From: Alphaproteobacteria bacterium | Lineage (GTDB): Bacteria > Pseudomonadota > Alphaproteobacteria > CAAHEQ01 > UBA3637 | Direction: 5' to 3' | Assembly: GCA_017559525.1 (NCBI GenBank) | Contig: JAFYRI010000012.1 | Span: 15,164 to 79,163, forward strand | DNA: 64,000 bases | Part shown: positions 36,052 through 45,789 of the stretch, one piece after another | Layout: each line of letters opens with the position of its first letter | How positions within the stretch are numbered: the stretch's first letter is position 1 | Translations under genes and position numbers: made by a program | The notes under the pieces: model-generated | What the model was told of the DNA's origin: nothing | The model's database searches: none | Seen by the model: only the letters and a program-made list of their open reading frames with translations

Positions 36052-37851
36052 ATGGTCAAAAAGGGTAAAAAGAAAATATCCTATATGTGTACGGCATTTC
36101 GTGATGGATTTCAATCTGTGTTTGGTGCCCGTGTCTTGTCAAAAGATTATATGCCAGTGGTAGCTGAAGCAGTTAAGGCTGGTATGACGAATATTGAAGC
36201 TGGTGGTGGGGCATCATTTCAAGCTGCTTTTTTCTATAACAATGAAAATGCTTTTGATGTAATGGATGAATTTCGCAGGGTTTGTGGTCCAAAAGTGAAT
36301 TTGCAAACGCTTGCACGTGGTGTGAATGTTGTGGCTCTTGATTCTCAAAGTTCTAAGATGATTGATTTGCATGCTAAAATGTTTAAAAAACATGGCATGA
36401 GTACTATTCGGAACTTTGATGCTTTGAATGATCCAAATAACTTAATTTTTAGTGCAAAATGTATTAAAAAAGCCGGATTAAAGCATCAATTATGTGTGTC
36501 TATGATGTCATTGCCTCCGGGATGCGAAGGTGCTCATACACCTGACTTTTATGAAGAAACACTCAAAAAATTTATTAAAGCTAAAATTCCGTTTGATTCG
36601 TTGTGTTTTAAAGACGCTTCCGGTACAACGGTTCCGGCGGTTGTGTACGAAACAATAAGACGTGCCAGAAAATTGGTAGGTGATAAAGTCCCATTGGAAT
36701 TCCATTCGCATGAAACAGCCGGTGCTGGATTGGCTTGTTATATGGCTGCTGTTGATGGTGGTGCCGATATTGTGGATTTATCCTTGGCACCTGTATCCGG
36801 CGGTACATGTCAACCGGATGTGGCAACGATGTGGCATGCTTTACGTGGAACGGATTTTGAATTAGATTGTGATATCGATGCGATTATGCGTGTAGAAGAT
36901 CATCTTAAAGATGCGCTTTCTGATTACTTTATGCCCCCTGAAGCTTTACATGTTGAACCGCAAATTCCTTGGTCCCCAATGCCAGGGGGGGCTTTGACAG
37001 CTAATACGCAAATGCTTAGAGATAACGGCTTGATGGATAAATATGGTGAAATTATTAAGGCGATGGAAGAAGTGGTCCGTAAGGGTGGTTTTGGTACTTC
37101 CGTGACACCGGTATCTCAATTTTATTTCCAACAAGCATTTAACAATGTGATGAGCGGTCCGTGGAATAAAATCGCCGATGGTTATGGTAAAATGGTATTG
37201 GGTTATTTTGGTAAAACACCTGTCGCTCCGGATAAGAAGGTGGTCAAAATTGCCTCTGAACAATTGGGATTAAAGCCAACGACTAAGAGTGTTTTGGAAA
37301 TTAATGATAAGAATGAGAAAAAATCTCGTAAACATTATGAAAATATGTTGAAAGAAGCCGGTTTGCCGATTACAGATGAAAATGTGTTTATTGCGGCTGC
37401 TTGTGGGGATAAGGGAATTACATTCTTACTTGGTAAAGCCAAAGTTGGTGTGCGTTATAAAGAAAAACAAGCATCATCTACACCGAAACAAGATACATAT
37501 AAAATTACAGTATCCGGTGAAACATTTGATGTCAAGTTAAATGGTAATACGGCAACAGTAAATGGTGTAGATTATCAGGTATCACTAGATGATGCTGTGG
37601 CACAAATATCTGCTGTTCCAGCTCAAACCACAGGTGTAGCACAAACAATTAACGCCGGTACACCGGGGACAATTACGCAAGTGCTTGTTAAATCAGGTGA
37701 TGTAGTTAAATCTGGTCAAACATTATGTGTGATTGAAGTGATGAAAATGGAAACAGAGGTCAAGGCTTTGTCTGATGTAACTATTACAAATGTTTTTGCA
37801 ACAAAAGGGGAACAGGTGGTCGCAGGCCAAAAACTGTTTGAGGTCAAATGA
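36052..37851 (+). CDS. oadA: oxaloacetate decarboxylase alpha subunit (carboxyltransferase plus biotin carrier domain)
   Basis: N-terminal pyruvate-carboxyltransferase TIM-barrel domain. C-terminal biotinyl domain with [12 protein letters not shown] (AMKM biotin attachment motif). Confidence 0.85.
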
Positions 37852-39101
37852 GTAAAGCCAGAGAATTATTACAATGGACGTTATATGCATTAGGTCTTTG
37901 TGCCGTTGCATTTATATTATCCTACTTTATACCGTCAATTGGTTCTGTTATGAAACAAACTGGAGTGTACCAATTATTTACTCCAATAACGCCTAAAGGA
38001 TTAATTTTGCCTCTTGGGTTTGGTCAAATCATTATGATTGGCATTTGTTTGGTGTTGTTGTATTTGGGGATTGTTAAAAAGTTTGAACCATTATTACTGT
38101 TGCCGATTGCATTTGGTGGTATTTTATCTAATGTACCAGGAACGGGATTAACGGAACCTGGTGGACTTTTGTATGTTTTATATCATATGGGTATTGAAAA
38201 TGGCTTATTTCCCTTGTTGATTTTTATGGGAGTAGGGGCCATGATTGATTTTGGTCCAATGCTTGCTAATCCTAAGACCGCATTGCTCGGTGGGGCAGCT
38301 CAATTTGCGATTTTTGGAACTTTTTTGGGGGCAGTTACATTAAGTAAGTATATTCCATTTTTAGATTTGTCTTTGCCACAAGCCGCGTCTATTGCTATTA
38401 TCGGCGGAGCTGATGGCCCAACATCTATTTTCTTGGCTTCGAAATTGGCTCCTGAATTGCTTGGGGCGATTGCAGTTGCTGCTTATTCCTATATGGCATT
38501 GGTACCAGTTATTCAACCGCCAATTATGCGTGCTTGTACAACGAAACAAGAACGTCTTATTGAAATGCAACAATTGCGTAGTGTATCCAAAAAGGAAAAA
38601 ATTATTTTACCAATTGTTGTGGTTTTGCTAACGGCTTTATTTGTGCCAATGGCATTGCCGTTGGTGGGGATGTTGATGTTCGGTAATTTGTTAAAAGAAT
38701 CTGGTGTGGCAGATAGATTGGCCGATACAGCTGCGAATAGTCTTATTAACATTGTTACAATCGTATTAGGATTATCTGTTGGATCAAAAATGTCTGCTGA
38801 GTTATTTTTAACATCCACGACTTTAGCTGTGTTATTCTTGGGGGTTATAGCTTTTAGTATTGGTACGGCAAGTGGTGTGTTGATGGCAAAATTGTTGAAC
38901 TTATTGCCTGGTGCAAAAATTAATCCGTTGATTGGTTCAGCTGGTGTTTCAGCCATTCCAATGGCAGCTCGCGTATCTCATAAATTAGGTCAAGAAGAAA
39001 ATCCAAATAATCATTTGTTAATGCATGCAATGGGGGCAAATGTATCAGGCTCTTTGGGGTCTGCCATTGCCGCCGGTATTTTGCTTGCTTTATGTAGTTA
39101 G
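37848..39101 (+). CDS. oadB: oxaloacetate decarboxylase beta subunit (Na+ pump)
   Basis: Polytopic membrane protein, OadB/GcdB/MmdB family. Start overlaps the oadA stop. Confidence 0.85.
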
Positions 39102-40526: not shown

Positions 40527-43346
40527 ATGAATATGATGAATGATACAGCCTTAACCACTGGGGTTGTGGATACCGTTCCGGTATTAATTGAAGATGAAAT
40601 GCGCAGATCCTATTTGGATTATGCGATGAGCGTAATTGTTTCTCGTGCTCTTCCAGATGTACGAGATGGTTTGAAGCCGGTACACAGACGTATTTTGTTC
40701 TCAATGTATGAAAACGGATATGATTATAATAAGCCATTCCGTAAATCTGCTCGTATCGTTGGAGATGTTATGGGTAAATACCATCCGCATGGTGACAGCT
40801 CAATTTACGAGGCTATGGTTCGTATGGCACAGCCTTTCTCAATGCGTGTGCCACTTATTAGCCCACAAGGTAACTTCGGTTCTATGGATGGTGATAAAGC
40901 TGCTGCTATGCGTTATACTGAGGCTAGATTGGCTCAAACGGCTCATTGGTTGATTGAAGATATTGATCGTGATACGGTTGATTTCCATCCAAACTATGAT
41001 GAAACATGTCAAGAACCGGCCGTATTGCCAGCCAGATTCCCGAACTTGCTTGTGAATGGTTCTGGTGGTATTGCTGTTGGTATGGCCACAAACATTCCAC
41101 CTCATAACTTAAACGAAGTTGTTCGTGCTTGTATCGCAACTATTGATAATCCGGATATTACGTTGGATGAGTTAATTGATATTGTGCCGGCTCCCGATTT
41201 CCCAACAGGTGGGTTGATTTTGGGGCGCGGTGGTGCTAGAAGTGGTTATCAAACAGGTCGTGGTTCCGTCATTATGCGTGCTCGTTGCACGATTGAAGAA
41301 GTGCATAAAGACAAAATGGCCATTATTGTTCACGAAATTCCATATCAAGTGAACAAAGCGGCTATGATTGTTCGTATTGCCGATTTGGTTAAGGAAAAAG
41401 TCATTGAAGGTATTTCCGATTTACGCGATGAATCCGACCGTCAAGGTGTACGTGTTGTTATTGAATTAAAACGTGATGCACATCCAGAAGTTATTTTGAA
41501 CCAATTATATAAATATACACCCTTGCAAACCAGCTTTGGTATGAATATGTTGGCTCTTAATAACGGTCGTCCAGAGCTCATGAATTTAAAACAAATCATT
41601 GACGCATTTATTGCTTTCCGTGAAGAAGTTGTTCGTCGCCGTACGGTTTATGAACTCAATAAAGCTCGTGATAGAGCTCACGTCTTAGTTGGTTTGGCGA
41701 TTTCTGTGGCCAACTTAGATCAAGTTATTGAAATGATTAAAACAGCTCCGGATCCACAAACGGCTAAATCCAGATTGATGGAAACAAGATGGCAAGCTAA
41801 GGATGTAGAGGATTTAATTTTGCTTATTGATGAACCAGATCGTAAGGTTGAAAATGGCATTTATATGTTATCCGAAACACAAGCCAAAGCCATTTTGGAT
41901 TTAAAACTCAACCGTTTGACTGGTTTAGAACGTGATAAAATTCATGATGAAGTTGGTGAATTGGCTGCTTTGATTAAGGGCTATTTGGATACACTTGCTT
42001 CTCGTGAACGTATTTATGCTATCATTCGTGAAGAATTAGAACTTGTTAATGTTCAATTCCCAACTCCACGTTTAACAACAATTGCTGATGGTGAATTTGA
42101 TCAAGATGATGAAGATTTAATTCCACGTGAACAAATGGTTGTCACTGTGACAAATACGGGTTACATTAAACGTGTGCCACTTAATACCTACCGTGCACAA
42201 CATCGTGGTGGCAAAGGGCGTTCCGGTATGTCCACACGTGAAGAAGATCAAGTATCTCAATTGTTTGTGTCTTGCACACACTCACCATTGTTGTTCTTCT
42301 CAACACGTGGTATTGTGTATAAAATTAAAACATACCGTTTGCCGGAAGGATCTCCACAATCACTCGGTAAGGCATTGATTAACTTGTTGCCATTACAACA
42401 AGGCGAAAAAATTACAACAATTTTGACATTACCAGAAAAAGCCGAAGAATGTGAAAACCAAACAGTGATGTTTGCAACGGCTTCGGGTGGTGTACGTCGT
42501 AACCGTTTAAGTGATTTCTGGAACGTTAATGCAAATGGTAAAATTGCCATGAAATTGGACGAAGGAGATGTCTTAATCGGTGTTGAAATTTGTACTGAAG
42601 ATGATGATATCTTGTTGTCTGCTGCTGGTGGTAAATGTGTTCGTTTCCCAGCTGCTGATGTACGGGTATTTGAATCTCGTGCCTCAACGGGTGTTCGTGG
42701 TATGAAATTAGCCGATGGCGATAAAGTGATTTCAATGTCTGTACTTGACCACGTCAAAGCCGATATTGAAAAACGTGATGCTTACTTGAAAGAAGCTGTT
42801 GCTCGTCGTCGTTTGGCTGGATCTGCCGATGAAACAGATGCAGTTGAAACAGAAACAGTTACAAACACAACTTTAACAGCCGAAGAATTTGAAAAAATGG
42901 CTGCCGAAGAACAATTTGTATTGACCATTACGGAAAAAGGTTATGGTAAACGGTCTTCTGCTTATGAATATCGTATTACATCCCGTGGTACTCAAGGTGT
43001 AACAAACATCAAAACGGATGATGATAAACGTAAAGCAAATGTTGTTGCTTCAATGCCTGTCCCACATGCTTCTCATATTATGTTGGTAACGGATGCGGGG
43101 AAACTCATTCGTATGCGTACGGACGATATTCGCATTGCTGGTCGTTCTACAATGGGTGTCATTTTGTTCCGTTTGGATAAAAATGAAAAGGTTGTATCCG
43201 CTACATGTATTACGGATTTAGGTGAAGAGGAAAATGAAACCGAAAATCAAACACTTGAAAATGCATGTGAAACAGGAGCCGTTTCGGAAGAAGCAATTGA
43301 GCAAGCTATTCAAAACGAAGCCGGTCAACCACAAGTAGAACAATAA
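40527..43346 (+). CDS. gyrA: DNA gyrase subunit A
   Basis: [17 protein letters not shown]. Active-site region [10 protein letters not shown]. GyrA-box and beta-pinwheel repeats. Acidic C-terminal tail. Confidence 0.95.
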
Positions 43347-43398
43347 TTGACAGGATAGGGAGGGCTATCATGCCCCCCTTTTTTTCTATGAGGTAGAT

Positions 43399-44913
43399 AT
43401 GAAACAATTTTTGAAAAATATAGTTTTCTTAAGCATGATGATATGTCCGATTGTTTCATATGCCTCTTGTCCAGCGGATAAGCCAATACAAACTTTATCT
43501 GGGTGCAAATCTTGTGATGCACCGCAAGCTCTTTTGCAAGTTAAATGTATTACCTGTGGTGATAAGGATATAGATATATTAGAGGTCTGTCCAAATCGGC
43601 AAAGAAAAGGTATCACGACAATTTTAAAGGAATGTCCCTCAGATAAACCTCATCGAACATCAGAAGGGGATTGTTATGCTTGCTCTGATGAAAGTTACTT
43701 TTTTGTTAAGAAAGATTATAAAAATCCTTGTCCTAACAGAACGATACGTAAGGAGGGAGAAAGCTATATTTCTGGTTTAATTTGTTCGGATGATAAACCA
43801 ATATATAGTTTTGGAAAATGTTATGCTTGCTCTGAAGAAAAAGAGTTGTATATTCTAGATAATAATAAAAATCCTTGTTCAAATAGAACGATACATAAGA
43901 AGGGAGAAAGTTATATTTCTGTTTTGAATTGTCCTGATGATAAGCCTTTGTATTCGAAAGGAAAATGTTATGCTTGTGATACCACAAAAACATTAACGGT
44001 ATCTTCTGATATACCTTCTGATATTTGTCCTAATAGACGCGTGGAATTTGGTGAGTCTAAATTTGAATGTCCAATAGATAAACCTTTAAGAGATGCACAG
44101 GATAATTGTTATTCTTGCCTTGAGCCGAATGATATTATGTCACCTAAAAAGGATTCATGTCCAAATCGTAAAATAGAAACGAGAGTAGTTGATGGTTTAA
44201 ACAGAGAAAAGTATTCTGTTTTGGTTTGTCCAACACTGGATAAACCATTAAAAGATGATTTGGGACAATGTCATGCTTGTGATGAAGAAAGTGTGATCAA
44301 AGTTTCTATACACGAATGCCGAAAGGCTTGTCCAAATAGGGTGACAGATAAAGCAGAATATTGTTTGTCTTCATGCCCATCTGATAAACCACAAGTGGAT
44401 CGCAATGGTTTTTGTCATTCTTGTGATGATGTATCGGTTATTGTTATGAAAGAAGGTCAAGAGCATGTTTGTTCCAATAGACAAATGATGAAAGAGTATA
44501 AAGACTATATTTCTTCTCAGATTTGTCCATCGGATAAACCGATTTATGATAAAAATATAAGATGTCATACTTGTATGCCAGATTTATTAGATCATGGATT
44601 TATTCCGTTGAATCCAACTGATTGCACTAAGTTATGTCCAAATAATCATTTGGTTAATGGGATTTGTTCTCCATGTCCCGAAGGACAATTTTGGGTAGAT
44701 CATATGGAACGAAATTTAAACGATCCTTTATCAAGAGAGGAGGTTAAGGCTTGTGTTTCATGTGAGGATGAAAGATATGTATATGATGGTATTTTGGATA
44801 TGGCAAAACGACTGTGTCCCAATCGTATGGATATAAGTACTTGGGGTGGTACATACAGTGCCAATAAAAGTATTGTAAATAAAATTAAATCAATATTTAG
44901 TATTTTTTATTGA
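43399..44913 (+). CDS. secreted Cys-rich tandem-repeat protein (8-9 modules of CP.DKP...C..C...CPNR)
   Basis: Signal peptide. Repeated CP[SAD]DKP-x6-8-C-x2-C modules alternate with CPNR[TKVQ] modules. Near-identical 120-bp DNA repeats sit at about 43721-43850 and 43868-43990. Confidence 0.6.
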   Translation: MKQFLKNIVFLSMMICPIVSYASCPADKPIQTLSGCKSCDAPQALLQVKCITCGDKDIDILEVCPNRQRKGITTILKECPSDKPHRTSEGDCYACSDESYFFVKKDYKNPCPNRTIRKEGESYISGLICSDDKPIYSFGKCYACSEEKELYILDNNKNPCSNRTIHKKGESYISVLNCPDDKPLYSKGKCYACDTTKTLTVSSDIPSDICPNRRVEFGESKFECPIDKPLRDAQDNCYSCLEPNDIMSPKKDSCPNRKIETRVVDGLNREKYSVLVCPTLDKPLKDDLGQCHACDEESVIKVSIHECRKACPNRVTDKAEYCLSSCPSDKPQVDRNGFCHSCDDVSVIVMKEGQEHVCSNRQMMKEYKDYISSQICPSDKPIYDKNIRCHTCMPDLLDHGFIPLNPTDCTKLCPNNHLVNGICSPCPEGQFWVDHMERNLNDPLSREEVKACVSCEDERYVYDGILDMAKRLCPNRMDISTWGGTYSANKSIVNKIKSIFSIFY

Positions 44914-45039
44914 TTGCTCAAAATAGTGGGATTATATTTGTTTCTTTTTAAAAGGAGTCTTTTAAACGTATTAATTTTTCTATTGACTATTACAAAAAAT
45001 AATCTTAAAAGAAATAAATAAAAAATAAAGGGGAAAATT

Positions 45040-45222
45040 ATGTGTCCGTGTCCGATATGTGCAACAATAGCCTTACTTTTATTGCCGTTTGCTGGCTATA
45101 AATGGGCAAAGAAATTTATGAAACGCCACCATTGTTCGTGTGATAGATGTCAAACAGCCGAACATGAACAAAGTGTGCAAAATCATACTAAGTGCCATTG
45201 TAATAAATGTGCACATCATTAG
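45040..45222 (+). CDS. small Cys/His-rich membrane-anchored protein (60 aa)
   Basis: RBS AAAGGGGAAAA. 10 Cys and 7 His including CPCPIC, HHCSCDRC and CHCNKCAHH. One hydrophobic helix. Confidence 0.4.
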   Translation: MCPCPICATIALLLLPFAGYKWAKKFMKRHHCSCDRCQTAEHEQSVQNHTKCHCNKCAHH

Positions 45223-45240
45223 AAAAGTAAAGGAGGAAAT

Positions 45241-45789
45241 ATGAAATACTTTTCAAAGGTCTTAATGGCTGTTTTATTATTTTTTACAACAACTGCAGGA
45301 GCTCAAACAATGACAGATAAAGAAAATACACTTTTAATGGATTTAGATTACGGTCAAGTTGTAATTCAATTAGATCCGACAATTGCGCCAAACCATGTCG
45401 CCAGAATTAAAGAGTTAACACGTCAAGGATTTTATAATGGCGTTAAATTCCACCGTGTAATTCCTGGTTTTATGGCTCAAACAGGTGATCCAACCGGCAC
45501 AGGTATGGGGGGCAGTGGTAAAAACTTAAAAGCCGAATTTAATCGCAAACCACACGTTCGCGGTACTGTTTCTATGGCCAGAGCAGGGCACCCAGATTCT
45601 GCGGATAGCCAATTCTTCATTTGCTTTGATGATGCAAGATTTTTGGATGGTCAATACACAGCGTTTGGTGAAGTCGTATCCGGTATGGAATTTGTTGATA
45701 TGATCAAGGCAGGTACATCTGCTAATAACGGTAAAGTCGCTAATCCGGACGTGATTGTCAAAATGCAAGTTGCTTCCGATGTGAAGTAA
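45241..45789 (+). CDS. periplasmic cyclophilin-type peptidyl-prolyl cis-trans isomerase
   Basis: Signal peptide. FHRVIPGFMAQTGDPTGTGMGG cyclophilin signature. RBS AAGGAGG. Confidence 0.85.
   Translation: MKYFSKVLMAVLLFFTTTAGAQTMTDKENTLLMDLDYGQVVIQLDPTIAPNHVARIKELTRQGFYNGVKFHRVIPGFMAQTGDPTGTGMGGSGKNLKAEFNRKPHVRGTVSMARAGHPDSADSQFFICFDDARFLDGQYTAFGEVVSGMEFVDMIKAGTSANNGKVANPDVIVKMQVASDVK

Follow-up and report, generated by a model that had tools for sequence, protein, structure and literature searches.

A gene for a nine-module cysteine-rich repeat protein downstream of gyrA in an alphaproteobacterium and its likeness to furin-like and TNFR repeats

Introduction

Directly downstream of gyrA, the 64,000-nt stretch of contig JAFYRI010000012.1 analyzed here (the window) carries an open reading frame (ORF) for a protein of 504 amino acids (aa) with 43 Cys, most of it arranged in tandem Cys-rich modules. 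The locus raises the question of what kind of repeat this is, and in which compartment and with which role such a protein could work. The initial annotation of this DNA had considered a new disulfide-rich adhesin or matrix fold. We arrive at a different reading of the fold. With a probability of about 0.6 the product is an exported, disulfide-stapled rod of nine modules which represents a bacterial variant of the furin-like/TNFR type of repeat and would act as a spacer or binding scaffold outside the cytoplasm, its gene being accessory, quick to evolve and variable among strains. The repeat gene is real and unannotated, and it is of a familiar general kind.

A protein of nine modules

The ORF is complete, and its coordinates and its description as an exported modular Cys-rich protein agree with the initial annotation. 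The N-terminus MKQFLKNIVFLSMMICPIVSYA has the layout of a Sec signal peptide, with Lys in the n-region, a hydrophobic core and a site of the small-x-small type (S-Y-A), and homologues of the repeat protein start in the same way. Of the 43 Cys one, Cys16, is lost with the signal peptide, which leaves an even number of 42 in the mature protein. We also considered reading the sequence SYASC as a lipoprotein signal and rejected this, as there is a Tyr at position −3 and the Cys in question, the conserved first one of module 1, has a partner.

A module hidden Markov model (HMM), built from eight obvious modules and then iterated on the family, recognized nine modules in the window protein with per-module E-values of about 1e-5 to 5e-16 (aa 21-71, 76-123, 127-172, 174-216, 223-261, 274-319, 322-370, 373-420, and 449-477). 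The regular expressions C[PS]x(1,2)DKP and C[PS]N[RN] are found 8 and 9 times, respectively. Module length ranges from 46 to 55 aa, with a DNA period of 147 nt. The number of 8-9 tandem modules given by the initial annotation is therefore confirmed, and its description of the mature protein as built entirely of them holds as well, except for a short non-repeat C-terminal tail (aa 478-504). This tail is kept in the relatives P0002 and P0003, and in P0004 a transmembrane (TM) helix takes its place. The CPxGxF variant seen in module 9 is common among family members. Over all six frames of the window the module HMM recognized no other ORF, that is, the gene is present in a single copy.

At the DNA level the adjacent copies are less similar than had been claimed. 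They had been described as more than 85% identical over about 125 nt, and we measured an ungapped identity of 79% over 125 nt, 76% over 147 nt and 83% over 92 nt; 88.5% is reached only over a 61-nt core (43718-43778). As proteins, modules 2 and 3 share 57% identity; for all other module pairs the value is 25-48%. Tandem Repeats Finder did not report the 147-nt array because the copies are too diverged.

A word-indexed protein search yielded 94 relatives, all of them either without a name or named "hypothetical protein" from "Alphaproteobacteria bacterium" metagenome-assembled genomes (MAGs), and none of the 94 has a Pfam domain over the repeats. When 1.84 billion cluster representatives were scanned exhaustively with a two-module profile in HMMER, only 622 matched at E<=1e-3 and 101 at E<=1e-30. 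The repeat family is small and restricted. A scan of GTDB genomes with the single protein gave one distant pilin-type relative only (L004, "uncultured Alphaproteobacteria bacterium BRZ_KF bin82"); the window GyrA is 78-97% identical to proteins of Alphaproteobacteria MAGs. The consensus unit of the family reads Y-C-x-L-x-C-P-x-D-K-P-L-x-D-x2-G-x-C-Y-x-C-D-x(10-14)-C-x(2,3)-C-P-N-R-x(5-10) and has six Cys. No family in Pfam or NCBIfam matches the window protein at E<=10, the PDB sequence-profile search with the two-module alignment gave only a chance match to a c-type cytochrome (E = 2.5), and our literature searches found the family described nowhere. The module is thus not recognized by any curated family model, in line with the initial annotation.

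Cysteine pairing and structure models

We analyzed the Cys content of 418 distinct units, each bounded by consecutive CPxDKP cysteines. The count is even in 417/418 units, with 6 Cys in 350, 4 in 45, 2 in 12, 8 in 9 and 7 in a single unit. The cysteines are present or absent in specific pairs. Loop and linker Cys occur together in 329 units and are jointly missing from 39; a further 19 units have two loop Cys and no linker Cys, and only four units, which look like alignment artefacts, are discordant. The six units without the second CxxC Cys have no CPNR Cys either, and in 12 degenerate units all that is left are the Cys of CPxDKP and the first one of CxxC. In the window protein the third pair is present in modules 6 and 8 only, module 1 is a two-loop-Cys variant and the rest have four Cys.

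This pairwise co-occurrence and co-loss points to three disulfides with the connectivity 1-2, 3-5, 4-6, which would be the simplest reading of the presence/absence statistics. For module 6 such a pattern would join C277 to C291, C294 to C311 and C307 to C322. What had been described as two short Cys knots is therefore better seen as a hairpin disulfide from the CPxDKP Cys to the first CxxC Cys and a second one from the second CxxC Cys to the CPNR Cys, and most family members would have a third, inter-linker disulfide.

We therefore propose that after Sec export the protein would fold oxidatively to a disulfide-stapled rod of nine tandem modules of ~50 aa. In each unit a disulfide linking the Cys of CPxDKP to the first one of CxxC would close a short beta-hairpin, and a disulfide linking the second CxxC Cys to the CPNR Cys would close a second element. 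In canonical units a third disulfide would connect the loop Cys with the linker Cys just before the next module, and most modules of the window protein would have lost this pair and have a longer beta-hairpin linker instead.

An AlphaFold2 model of two modules (aa 272-375, modules 6-7, from a 65-row alignment of module pairs) has a mean predicted local distance difference test (pLDDT) score of 89.1, and the full-length model one of 82.2, with modules 2-8 at 83-96. In the models a module consists of a short beta-hairpin after CPxDKP and one further strand, with little other regular structure, and the four-Cys modules have a longer hairpin in the linker. In the full-length model the N-terminal aa 2-14 form a lone, detached helix of low pLDDT, and the C-terminal helix (aa 490-503) has a pLDDT of ~58.

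Likeness to furin-like and TNFR repeats

TNFR cysteine-rich domains (CRDs) have the connectivity 1-2, 3-5, 4-6, the A1 module holding one disulfide and the B2 module two. The connectivity expected of a TNFR/furin-like repeat (1-2, then 3-5 and 4-6) is also what the Cys co-occurrence statistics of the window family indicate, on an indirect basis. TNFR CRDs are composed of A1 and B2 modules in the classification of Naismith and Sprang (as summarized in PMC3412742), and the Cys-rich domains of EGFR and of the insulin receptor have TNFR/laminin-like disulfides (PMC4092861). The connectivity suggests that the module is an undescribed, highly diverged bacterial branch of the TNFR/furin-like repeat type.

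Further evidence comes from one of the profile matches, P0139, a 2705-aa protein encoded at 2001-10118 of L011 (assembly GCA_963988835.2, eukaryote-type), a locus which is not translatable under table 11 and suggests a non-standard, ciliate-like genetic code. P0139 consists of a cathepsin propeptide, a papain-like domain, 39 near-identical 53-aa repeats and a TM helix, and it passes the Pfam Furin-like model with 51.5 bits at a gathering score of 26.8. Its repeats align with all six module Cys in register (HMMER E = 8.9e-40 over 39 stretches), and hhalign of the module profile with the P0139 repeats gave a probability of 79% and E = 1.6e-5. In addition, the diverged bacterial members P0124 and P0131 have CxxGxFRD in place of CPxDKPL, which gives them a furin-like/GCC2_GCC3 look. 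Diverged members also show C..CPxGxF/Y motifs and sub-threshold matches to TNFR_ELAPOR1 and EGF_Teneurin; the match of P0131 to TNFR_ELAPOR1_6th is sub-threshold and lies in a different part of the protein.

The likeness to known repeats is graded. Furin-like repeats (PF00757, PF14843; EGFR, insulin receptor Cys-rich region, R-spondin Fu) are likewise extracellular tandem rods of disulfide-stapled beta-hairpin modules and have in common with the window array the alternation of one- and two-disulfide sub-modules and the spacing C-x-x-x-CP...G-x-C-x2-3-C. The window unit, in contrast, is longer (~50 aa) and is marked by conserved DKPL and CPNR motifs, the third disulfide would be lost from most of the window modules, and the Pfam models miss the window protein and every bacterial member. 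Furin-like and TNFR repeats are not known to have DKPL or PNR motifs. EGF repeats have the connectivity 1-3, 2-4, 5-6. The EGF-like arrays of Pvs25/Pfs25/Pfs28 and LRP2 are comparable as compact disulfide-rich tandem modules on an exposed protein, but their connectivity is unlike the one indicated by the module Cys pairs. TNFR CRDs (PMC3412742) share with the family units of ~40-50 aa with six Cys, the connectivity deduced above and an elongated, ladder-like array, whereas the window family has no PF00020 match, is bacterial and has far more repeats.

Among bacterial proteins the closest analogy may be the Cys-rich stalk of Myxococcus TraA, which is part of a polymorphic cell-surface recognition receptor (PMC3325183). 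The TraA-type repeats (TIGR04201) are likewise bacterial and tandem, follow a type I signal sequence, probably form a rigid stalk and belong to a strain-variable gene. The window protein, however, has neither a PA14 head domain nor a MYXO-CTERM tag, its motif is different, and the Myxococcus repeat models TIGR04201 and TIGR02232 match neither the window protein (E<=10) nor 8 relatives.

Several results weigh against this assignment. The connectivity is deduced from Cys presence/absence statistics and not from model coordinates. In the HMMER match to P0139 the composition bias term is very large, and the individual repeats score only 10-18 bits each. None of the models Furin-like (PF00757), GF_recep_IV (PF14843), TNFR (PF00020), EGF and the Myxococcus Cys-repeats matches the window protein at E<=10, and over 65 other scanned members the same curated models match only the eukaryotic P0139. 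Foldseek found no significant three-dimensional similarity to solved furin-like/TNFR members: its top matches were the above-mentioned EGF-like arrays (E 0.13-4, TM-scores <0.2, not significant), and the insulin receptor L1-CR and RSPO2 Fu1-Fu2 (E 0.85-3) as well as 4-1BB (E = 2.6) were matched weakly and not significantly. Fold searches are known to have low sensitivity for modules of 50 aa that contain little regular secondary structure. Beside the repeat gene there are no genes for a secretion or anchoring system, so that a surface location is a prediction only. Finally, no promoter is apparent from the gyrA terminator to the ATG of the repeat gene. A scan for a sigma-70 promoter of its own gave matches at chance level, and a perfect TTGACA (43347-43352) has no usable −10 element at a spacing of 16-18 nt. 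Given the ~12 nt between T-run and ATG, any expression of the repeat gene would probably require read-through or a promoter which the scan does not recognize.

Taken together the module probably works like furin-like/TNFR repeats and is distantly related to them, and we do not file it as a member. The data show the ORF, its modules, the family, the statistics of the Cys pairs, the insertion and the rates of evolution; the actual disulfide bonds, homology with these repeats, the final location of the protein and its ligand are what we infer.

Location and function

Most likely the protein functions as an extracytoplasmic stalk, spacer or binding surface, as would be suggested by its relatives, in which such arrays adjoin pilin-like N-termini, TM anchors or VIT, MORN_2 or LprI domains. 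In relatives the array is joined to a type IV prepilin-like N-terminus SGRSMVEMLGVLAIIGVLS, for P0092 with a TIGR02532 score of 18.0 bits at a cut-off of 16.3, and weak N_methyl matches were obtained for 9/66 scanned members. Multi-TM regions are fused to the N- or C-terminus in P0043, P0075, P0077, and P0081. Fusions to VIT and DUF2135 (P0096, 1616 aa), to MORN_2 or LprI (P0065/P0066/P0083, P0067) indicate a mobile, general-purpose extracytoplasmic module, and the number of repeats in relatives rises to 16 or more. The window protein itself has an ordinary signal peptide and no match to the prepilin models (TIGR02532 / PF07963), whose mark is an N-terminal G|xxxxE motif with a hydrophobic helix after it. 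With regard to outer-membrane beta-barrel or autotransporter-type proteins, for which a C-terminal barrel or a beta-signal with a final aromatic residue would be expected, the sequence ends with SIFSIFY, the tail is modelled as a helix of low confidence and no barrel domain was matched.

In most family members the Cys-rich array is preceded by a prepilin-type N-terminus GRSMVEMLGVLAIIGVLS and a ~150-200-aa globular domain. The very large pilin-like relatives include P0006-P0010, P0013, P0021-P0024, P0092, and the protein encoded at 5170-6705 of L004. In the neighborhoods of the genes for two pilin-type paralogues (loci L009 and L010) there is no pilus or secretion operon; the inspected paralogues stand alone among housekeeping genes. 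In L004 (5170-9013, BRZ_KF bin82) the pilin-type member lies directly 5′ of a gene for a gyrA/parC-like topoisomerase subunit, a parallel to the position of the window gene beside gyrA that is probably coincidental.

Instead of being displayed at the surface as an adhesin, the protein could be a periplasmic or inner-membrane-associated structural protein. It has a Sec signal only, and the Pfam/NCBIfam scans of the repeat protein gave no signal of an autotransporter, of type I, V or IX secretion systems (T1SS/T5SS/T9SS) or of a sortase-like kind. The TM helix at the end of the orthologue P0004, the multi-TM fusions in P0043, P0075, P0077, and P0081 and the periplasmic cyclophilin encoded nearby would also fit this explanation. 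Yet the prepilin-type N-termini of many relatives imply display on pilus-like fibers, the cyclophilin adjacency is older than the insertion of the repeat gene and hence gives no functional linkage, and rapid evolution together with strain variability is more usual for exposed proteins. We therefore consider a periplasmic role somewhat unlikely.

Evolution of the locus

The order gyrA, repeat gene, small ORF and peptidyl-prolyl isomerase (PPIase) gene is conserved in L001, L002/L003, and L006. Orthologues of the repeat protein in L001 and L006 share 87% aa identity with it, and the copy in L002/L003 is 100% identical. The gene is also carried by the samples SRR12529248, SRR12529221, and ERZ27316097. 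In L007 and L008, whose GyrA are 83-88% identical, gyrA is followed directly by the small ORF, which starts with MCPCP, and the PPIase gene, and the repeat gene is absent. When the junctions are aligned, the insertion falls between the terminator-like hairpin of gyrA and a promoter-like TTGACT region of the small ORF. The repeat gene is an accessory, lineage-specific insertion after gyrA in one sublineage only.

The synonymous divergence (dS) of the repeat gene is 0.16-0.20 with a dN/dS ratio (omega) of 0.35-0.42, whereas the flanking genes have a dS of 0.57-1.0 and an omega <=0.08. For the window and L001 the values are dN 0.068, dS 0.163, and omega 0.42 for the repeat gene, dS 0.68 and omega 0.025 for gyrA, dS 0.57 and omega 0.012 for the small ORF, dS 0.68 and omega 0.042 for the PPIase gene, and dS 1.0 and omega 0.067 for msrAB. 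The nucleotide identity of the repeat gene to L001 is a mosaic, with 99% at 43827-44126, 95% at 44127-44426 and 85-89% over most of the rest; its last ~190 nt fall into a stretch of 96% identity (44727-45026). The flanks are mostly 80-91% identical to L001, with 95% just 3′ of the gene (45027-45326). A dS which is 3-5 times below that of the flanks together with the mosaic identity suggests recent allele exchange between strains.

At the orthologous position L005 has the allele P0004 (462 aa), in which modules 4-7 are absent, a TM-helix end replaces the tail of the window protein and the module 2/3 type is repeated in tandem three to four times, the copies being 89-92% identical at the DNA level. 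Array remodelling and allele exchange do occur between strains. The initial annotation had combined near-identical repeats with expansion and contraction by recombination; the turnover is seen in the L005 allele, and the near-identity does not hold for the window with its 76%.

These data bear on the possibility that the gene is a contingency or antigenic-variation locus for a surface protein which varies by recombination among its repeats and among strain alleles under pressure from host, phage or protist grazers. The raised dN/dS (0.35-0.42 versus <=0.08 in the neighbors), the low dS with an identity mosaic of 85-99%, the modules replaced or expanded at the same locus in L005 and the presence or absence of the gene among close relatives are all as expected for such a locus. 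On the other hand, internal repeats of 76% identity are a poor substrate for frequent homologous recombination, the gene is a single copy without silent cassettes in the window, simple-sequence tracts and invertible elements are absent, omega is <1 overall and surface exposure is itself only a proposal. We regard a dedicated variation locus as unlikely.

Is the fold new?

A truly new disulfide-rich fold, which would have no evolutionary link to furin-like, TNFR and EGF-type repeats and would share their Cys register through convergence, was in part suggested by the initial annotation. It would account for the missing Pfam, NCBIfam and PDB sequence-profile matches and for the conserved DKPL and PNR motifs, which are not known from furin-like/TNFR repeats. 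But the deduced connectivity equals the A1+B2 pattern of TNFR, the profile matches the Pfam-validated Furin-like protein P0139 with six Cys in register, family members grade into CPxGxF/Y variants, and the fold searches lack sensitivity for such small modules. With the connectivity and the Cys-for-Cys alignment both pointing to the furin-like/TNFR type, a new fold is doubtful and in our view distinctly unlikely.

A more far-reaching proposal is that the family is a hitherto overlooked prokaryotic branch of the furin-like/TNFR superfamily. Such a branch would occur solely in one clade of uncultured, low-GC Alphaproteobacteria, would stem from eukaryotes or have been exchanged with them, and would be deployed as a strain-variable display stalk, often on type IV pilin-like anchors. 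The idea of an exchange with eukaryotes stems from P0139 with its 39 repeats in the same Cys register, the best non-bacterial match and protist-like. As a whole this proposal is very unlikely to be correct.

That four conserved Cys per module bind metal as in zinc-ribbon or rubredoxin-like knuckles, without any disulfides, can hardly be right: every module indeed has four invariant Cys, with one CxxC and two knuckle-like C-P motifs among them, and one family member has a sub-threshold Zn_ribbon_LapB match (E = 0.33), but the pairwise loss of Cys and the export signal argue against a four-Cys metal site, Cys being lost in specific pairs and not in fours, with some units keeping two and the optional third pair likewise behaving as a pair, and in place of two CxxC or CPxC knuckles with four Cys as a unit each module has a single CxxC and no conserved His.

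Gene surroundings and other features of the window

The features of the repeat gene and its upstream region are listed in Table 1. The hairpin 3′ of gyrA, a putative terminator, has an RNA folding energy of −17.5 kcal/mol (z = −1.7), and an equivalent hairpin is present 3′ of gyrA in L008, a relative without the repeat gene.

Table 1. Coordinates of the repeat gene, its modules and the adjoining upstream features (window positions)
Feature	Position	Strand	Remarks
gyrA	40527..43346		directly 5′ of the repeat gene
Terminator-like hairpin and T-run	43352..43386	+	directly 3′ of the gyrA stop; ~12 nt before the repeat-gene ATG
Ribosome-binding site GAGG	43390..43393	+	5 nt 5′ of the ATG; read from sequence
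Cys-rich repeat protein ORF	43399..44913	+	complete, stop codon included
Signal peptide	43399..43464	+	aa 1-22, MKQFLKNIVFLSMMICPIVSYA; predicted cleavage after SYA, mature start SCP
Module 1	43468..43632	+	aa 24-78; 6 Cys; extra loop CxxC pair (C50, C53) replaces linker Cys
Module 2	43633..43782	+	aa 79-128; 4-Cys type; pLDDT 92-96
Module 3	43783..43929	+	aa 129-177; 4-Cys type; closest paralogue of module 2
Module 4	43930..44067	+	aa 178-223; 4-Cys type
Module 5	44068..44226	+	aa 224-276; 4-Cys type, long beta-hairpin linker
Module 6	44227..44373	+	aa 277-325; canonical 6-Cys unit CPTLDKP...CHAC...C..ACPNR...YC
Module 7	44374..44523	+	aa 326-375; 4-Cys type
Module 8	44524..44673	+	aa 376-425; 6-Cys unit, CPNN end in place of CPNR
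Module 9	44674..44829	+	aa 426-477; divergent, CPEGQFW for CPxDKP, long hairpin; HMM hit aa 449-477, E = 3e-5
Non-repeat C-terminal tail	44830..44910	+	aa 478-504 (27 aa); ends in predicted helix SIVNKIKSIFSIFY
Two 147-nt direct DNA repeats	43672-43818 and 43819-43965	+	ungapped identity 76%

Downstream the repeat gene is followed by a 60-aa Cys/His-rich ORF, a cyclophilin gene with its own signal peptide and msrA-msrB. We rejected a functional link of the repeat protein to the 60-aa ORF and the periplasmic cyclophilin, because both directly follow gyrA in relatives without the repeat gene.

The small ORF itself codes for 60-91 aa across loci (window 45040-45222 on the + strand, L007 7800-8075, L008 7915-8118, L001 4559-4753). 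Its product starts with MCPCP(I/F)C, includes a single TM segment as well as a Cys/His-rich tail HHCSCDRCQTAEHE...CHCNKC, and has no Pfam match. It is under very strong purifying selection (omega 0.012, dS 0.57), and its position directly after gyrA in relatives without the repeat gene marks it as part of the conserved backbone. The product may be a small membrane-bound metal-binding protein.

Elsewhere the window encodes alpha- and beta-type subunits of an oxaloacetate decarboxylase (Na+ pump; 36052-39101) and a pyruvoyl-dependent arginine decarboxylase (48973-49557) adjoining an amino-acid permease, which together point to an anaerobic, fermentative source organism. The sole ORF >120 aa with a thioredoxin-type C[PGV]xC motif (CPYC, glutaredoxin-like) lies at 11339-11749 (+); no DsbA-like gene was noticed in the window.

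Conclusions

The value of the finding lies chiefly in annotation and structural classification, and it opens no long-standing question. If our reading is correct, the modules constitute a new domain family which can be curated, with at least 622 sequence clusters, and the disulfide-ladder repeat of the furin-like/TNFR type, usually thought to be eukaryotic, would extend to uncultured Alphaproteobacteria. Its combination with pilin-like anchors, VIT, MORN, and LprI would mark the module as a general-purpose extracytoplasmic stalk or binding scaffold. Presence or absence of the gene, mosaic alleles and module turnover would make the product a protein that varies at the strain level, and hence a possible strain marker and a candidate determinant of interactions.

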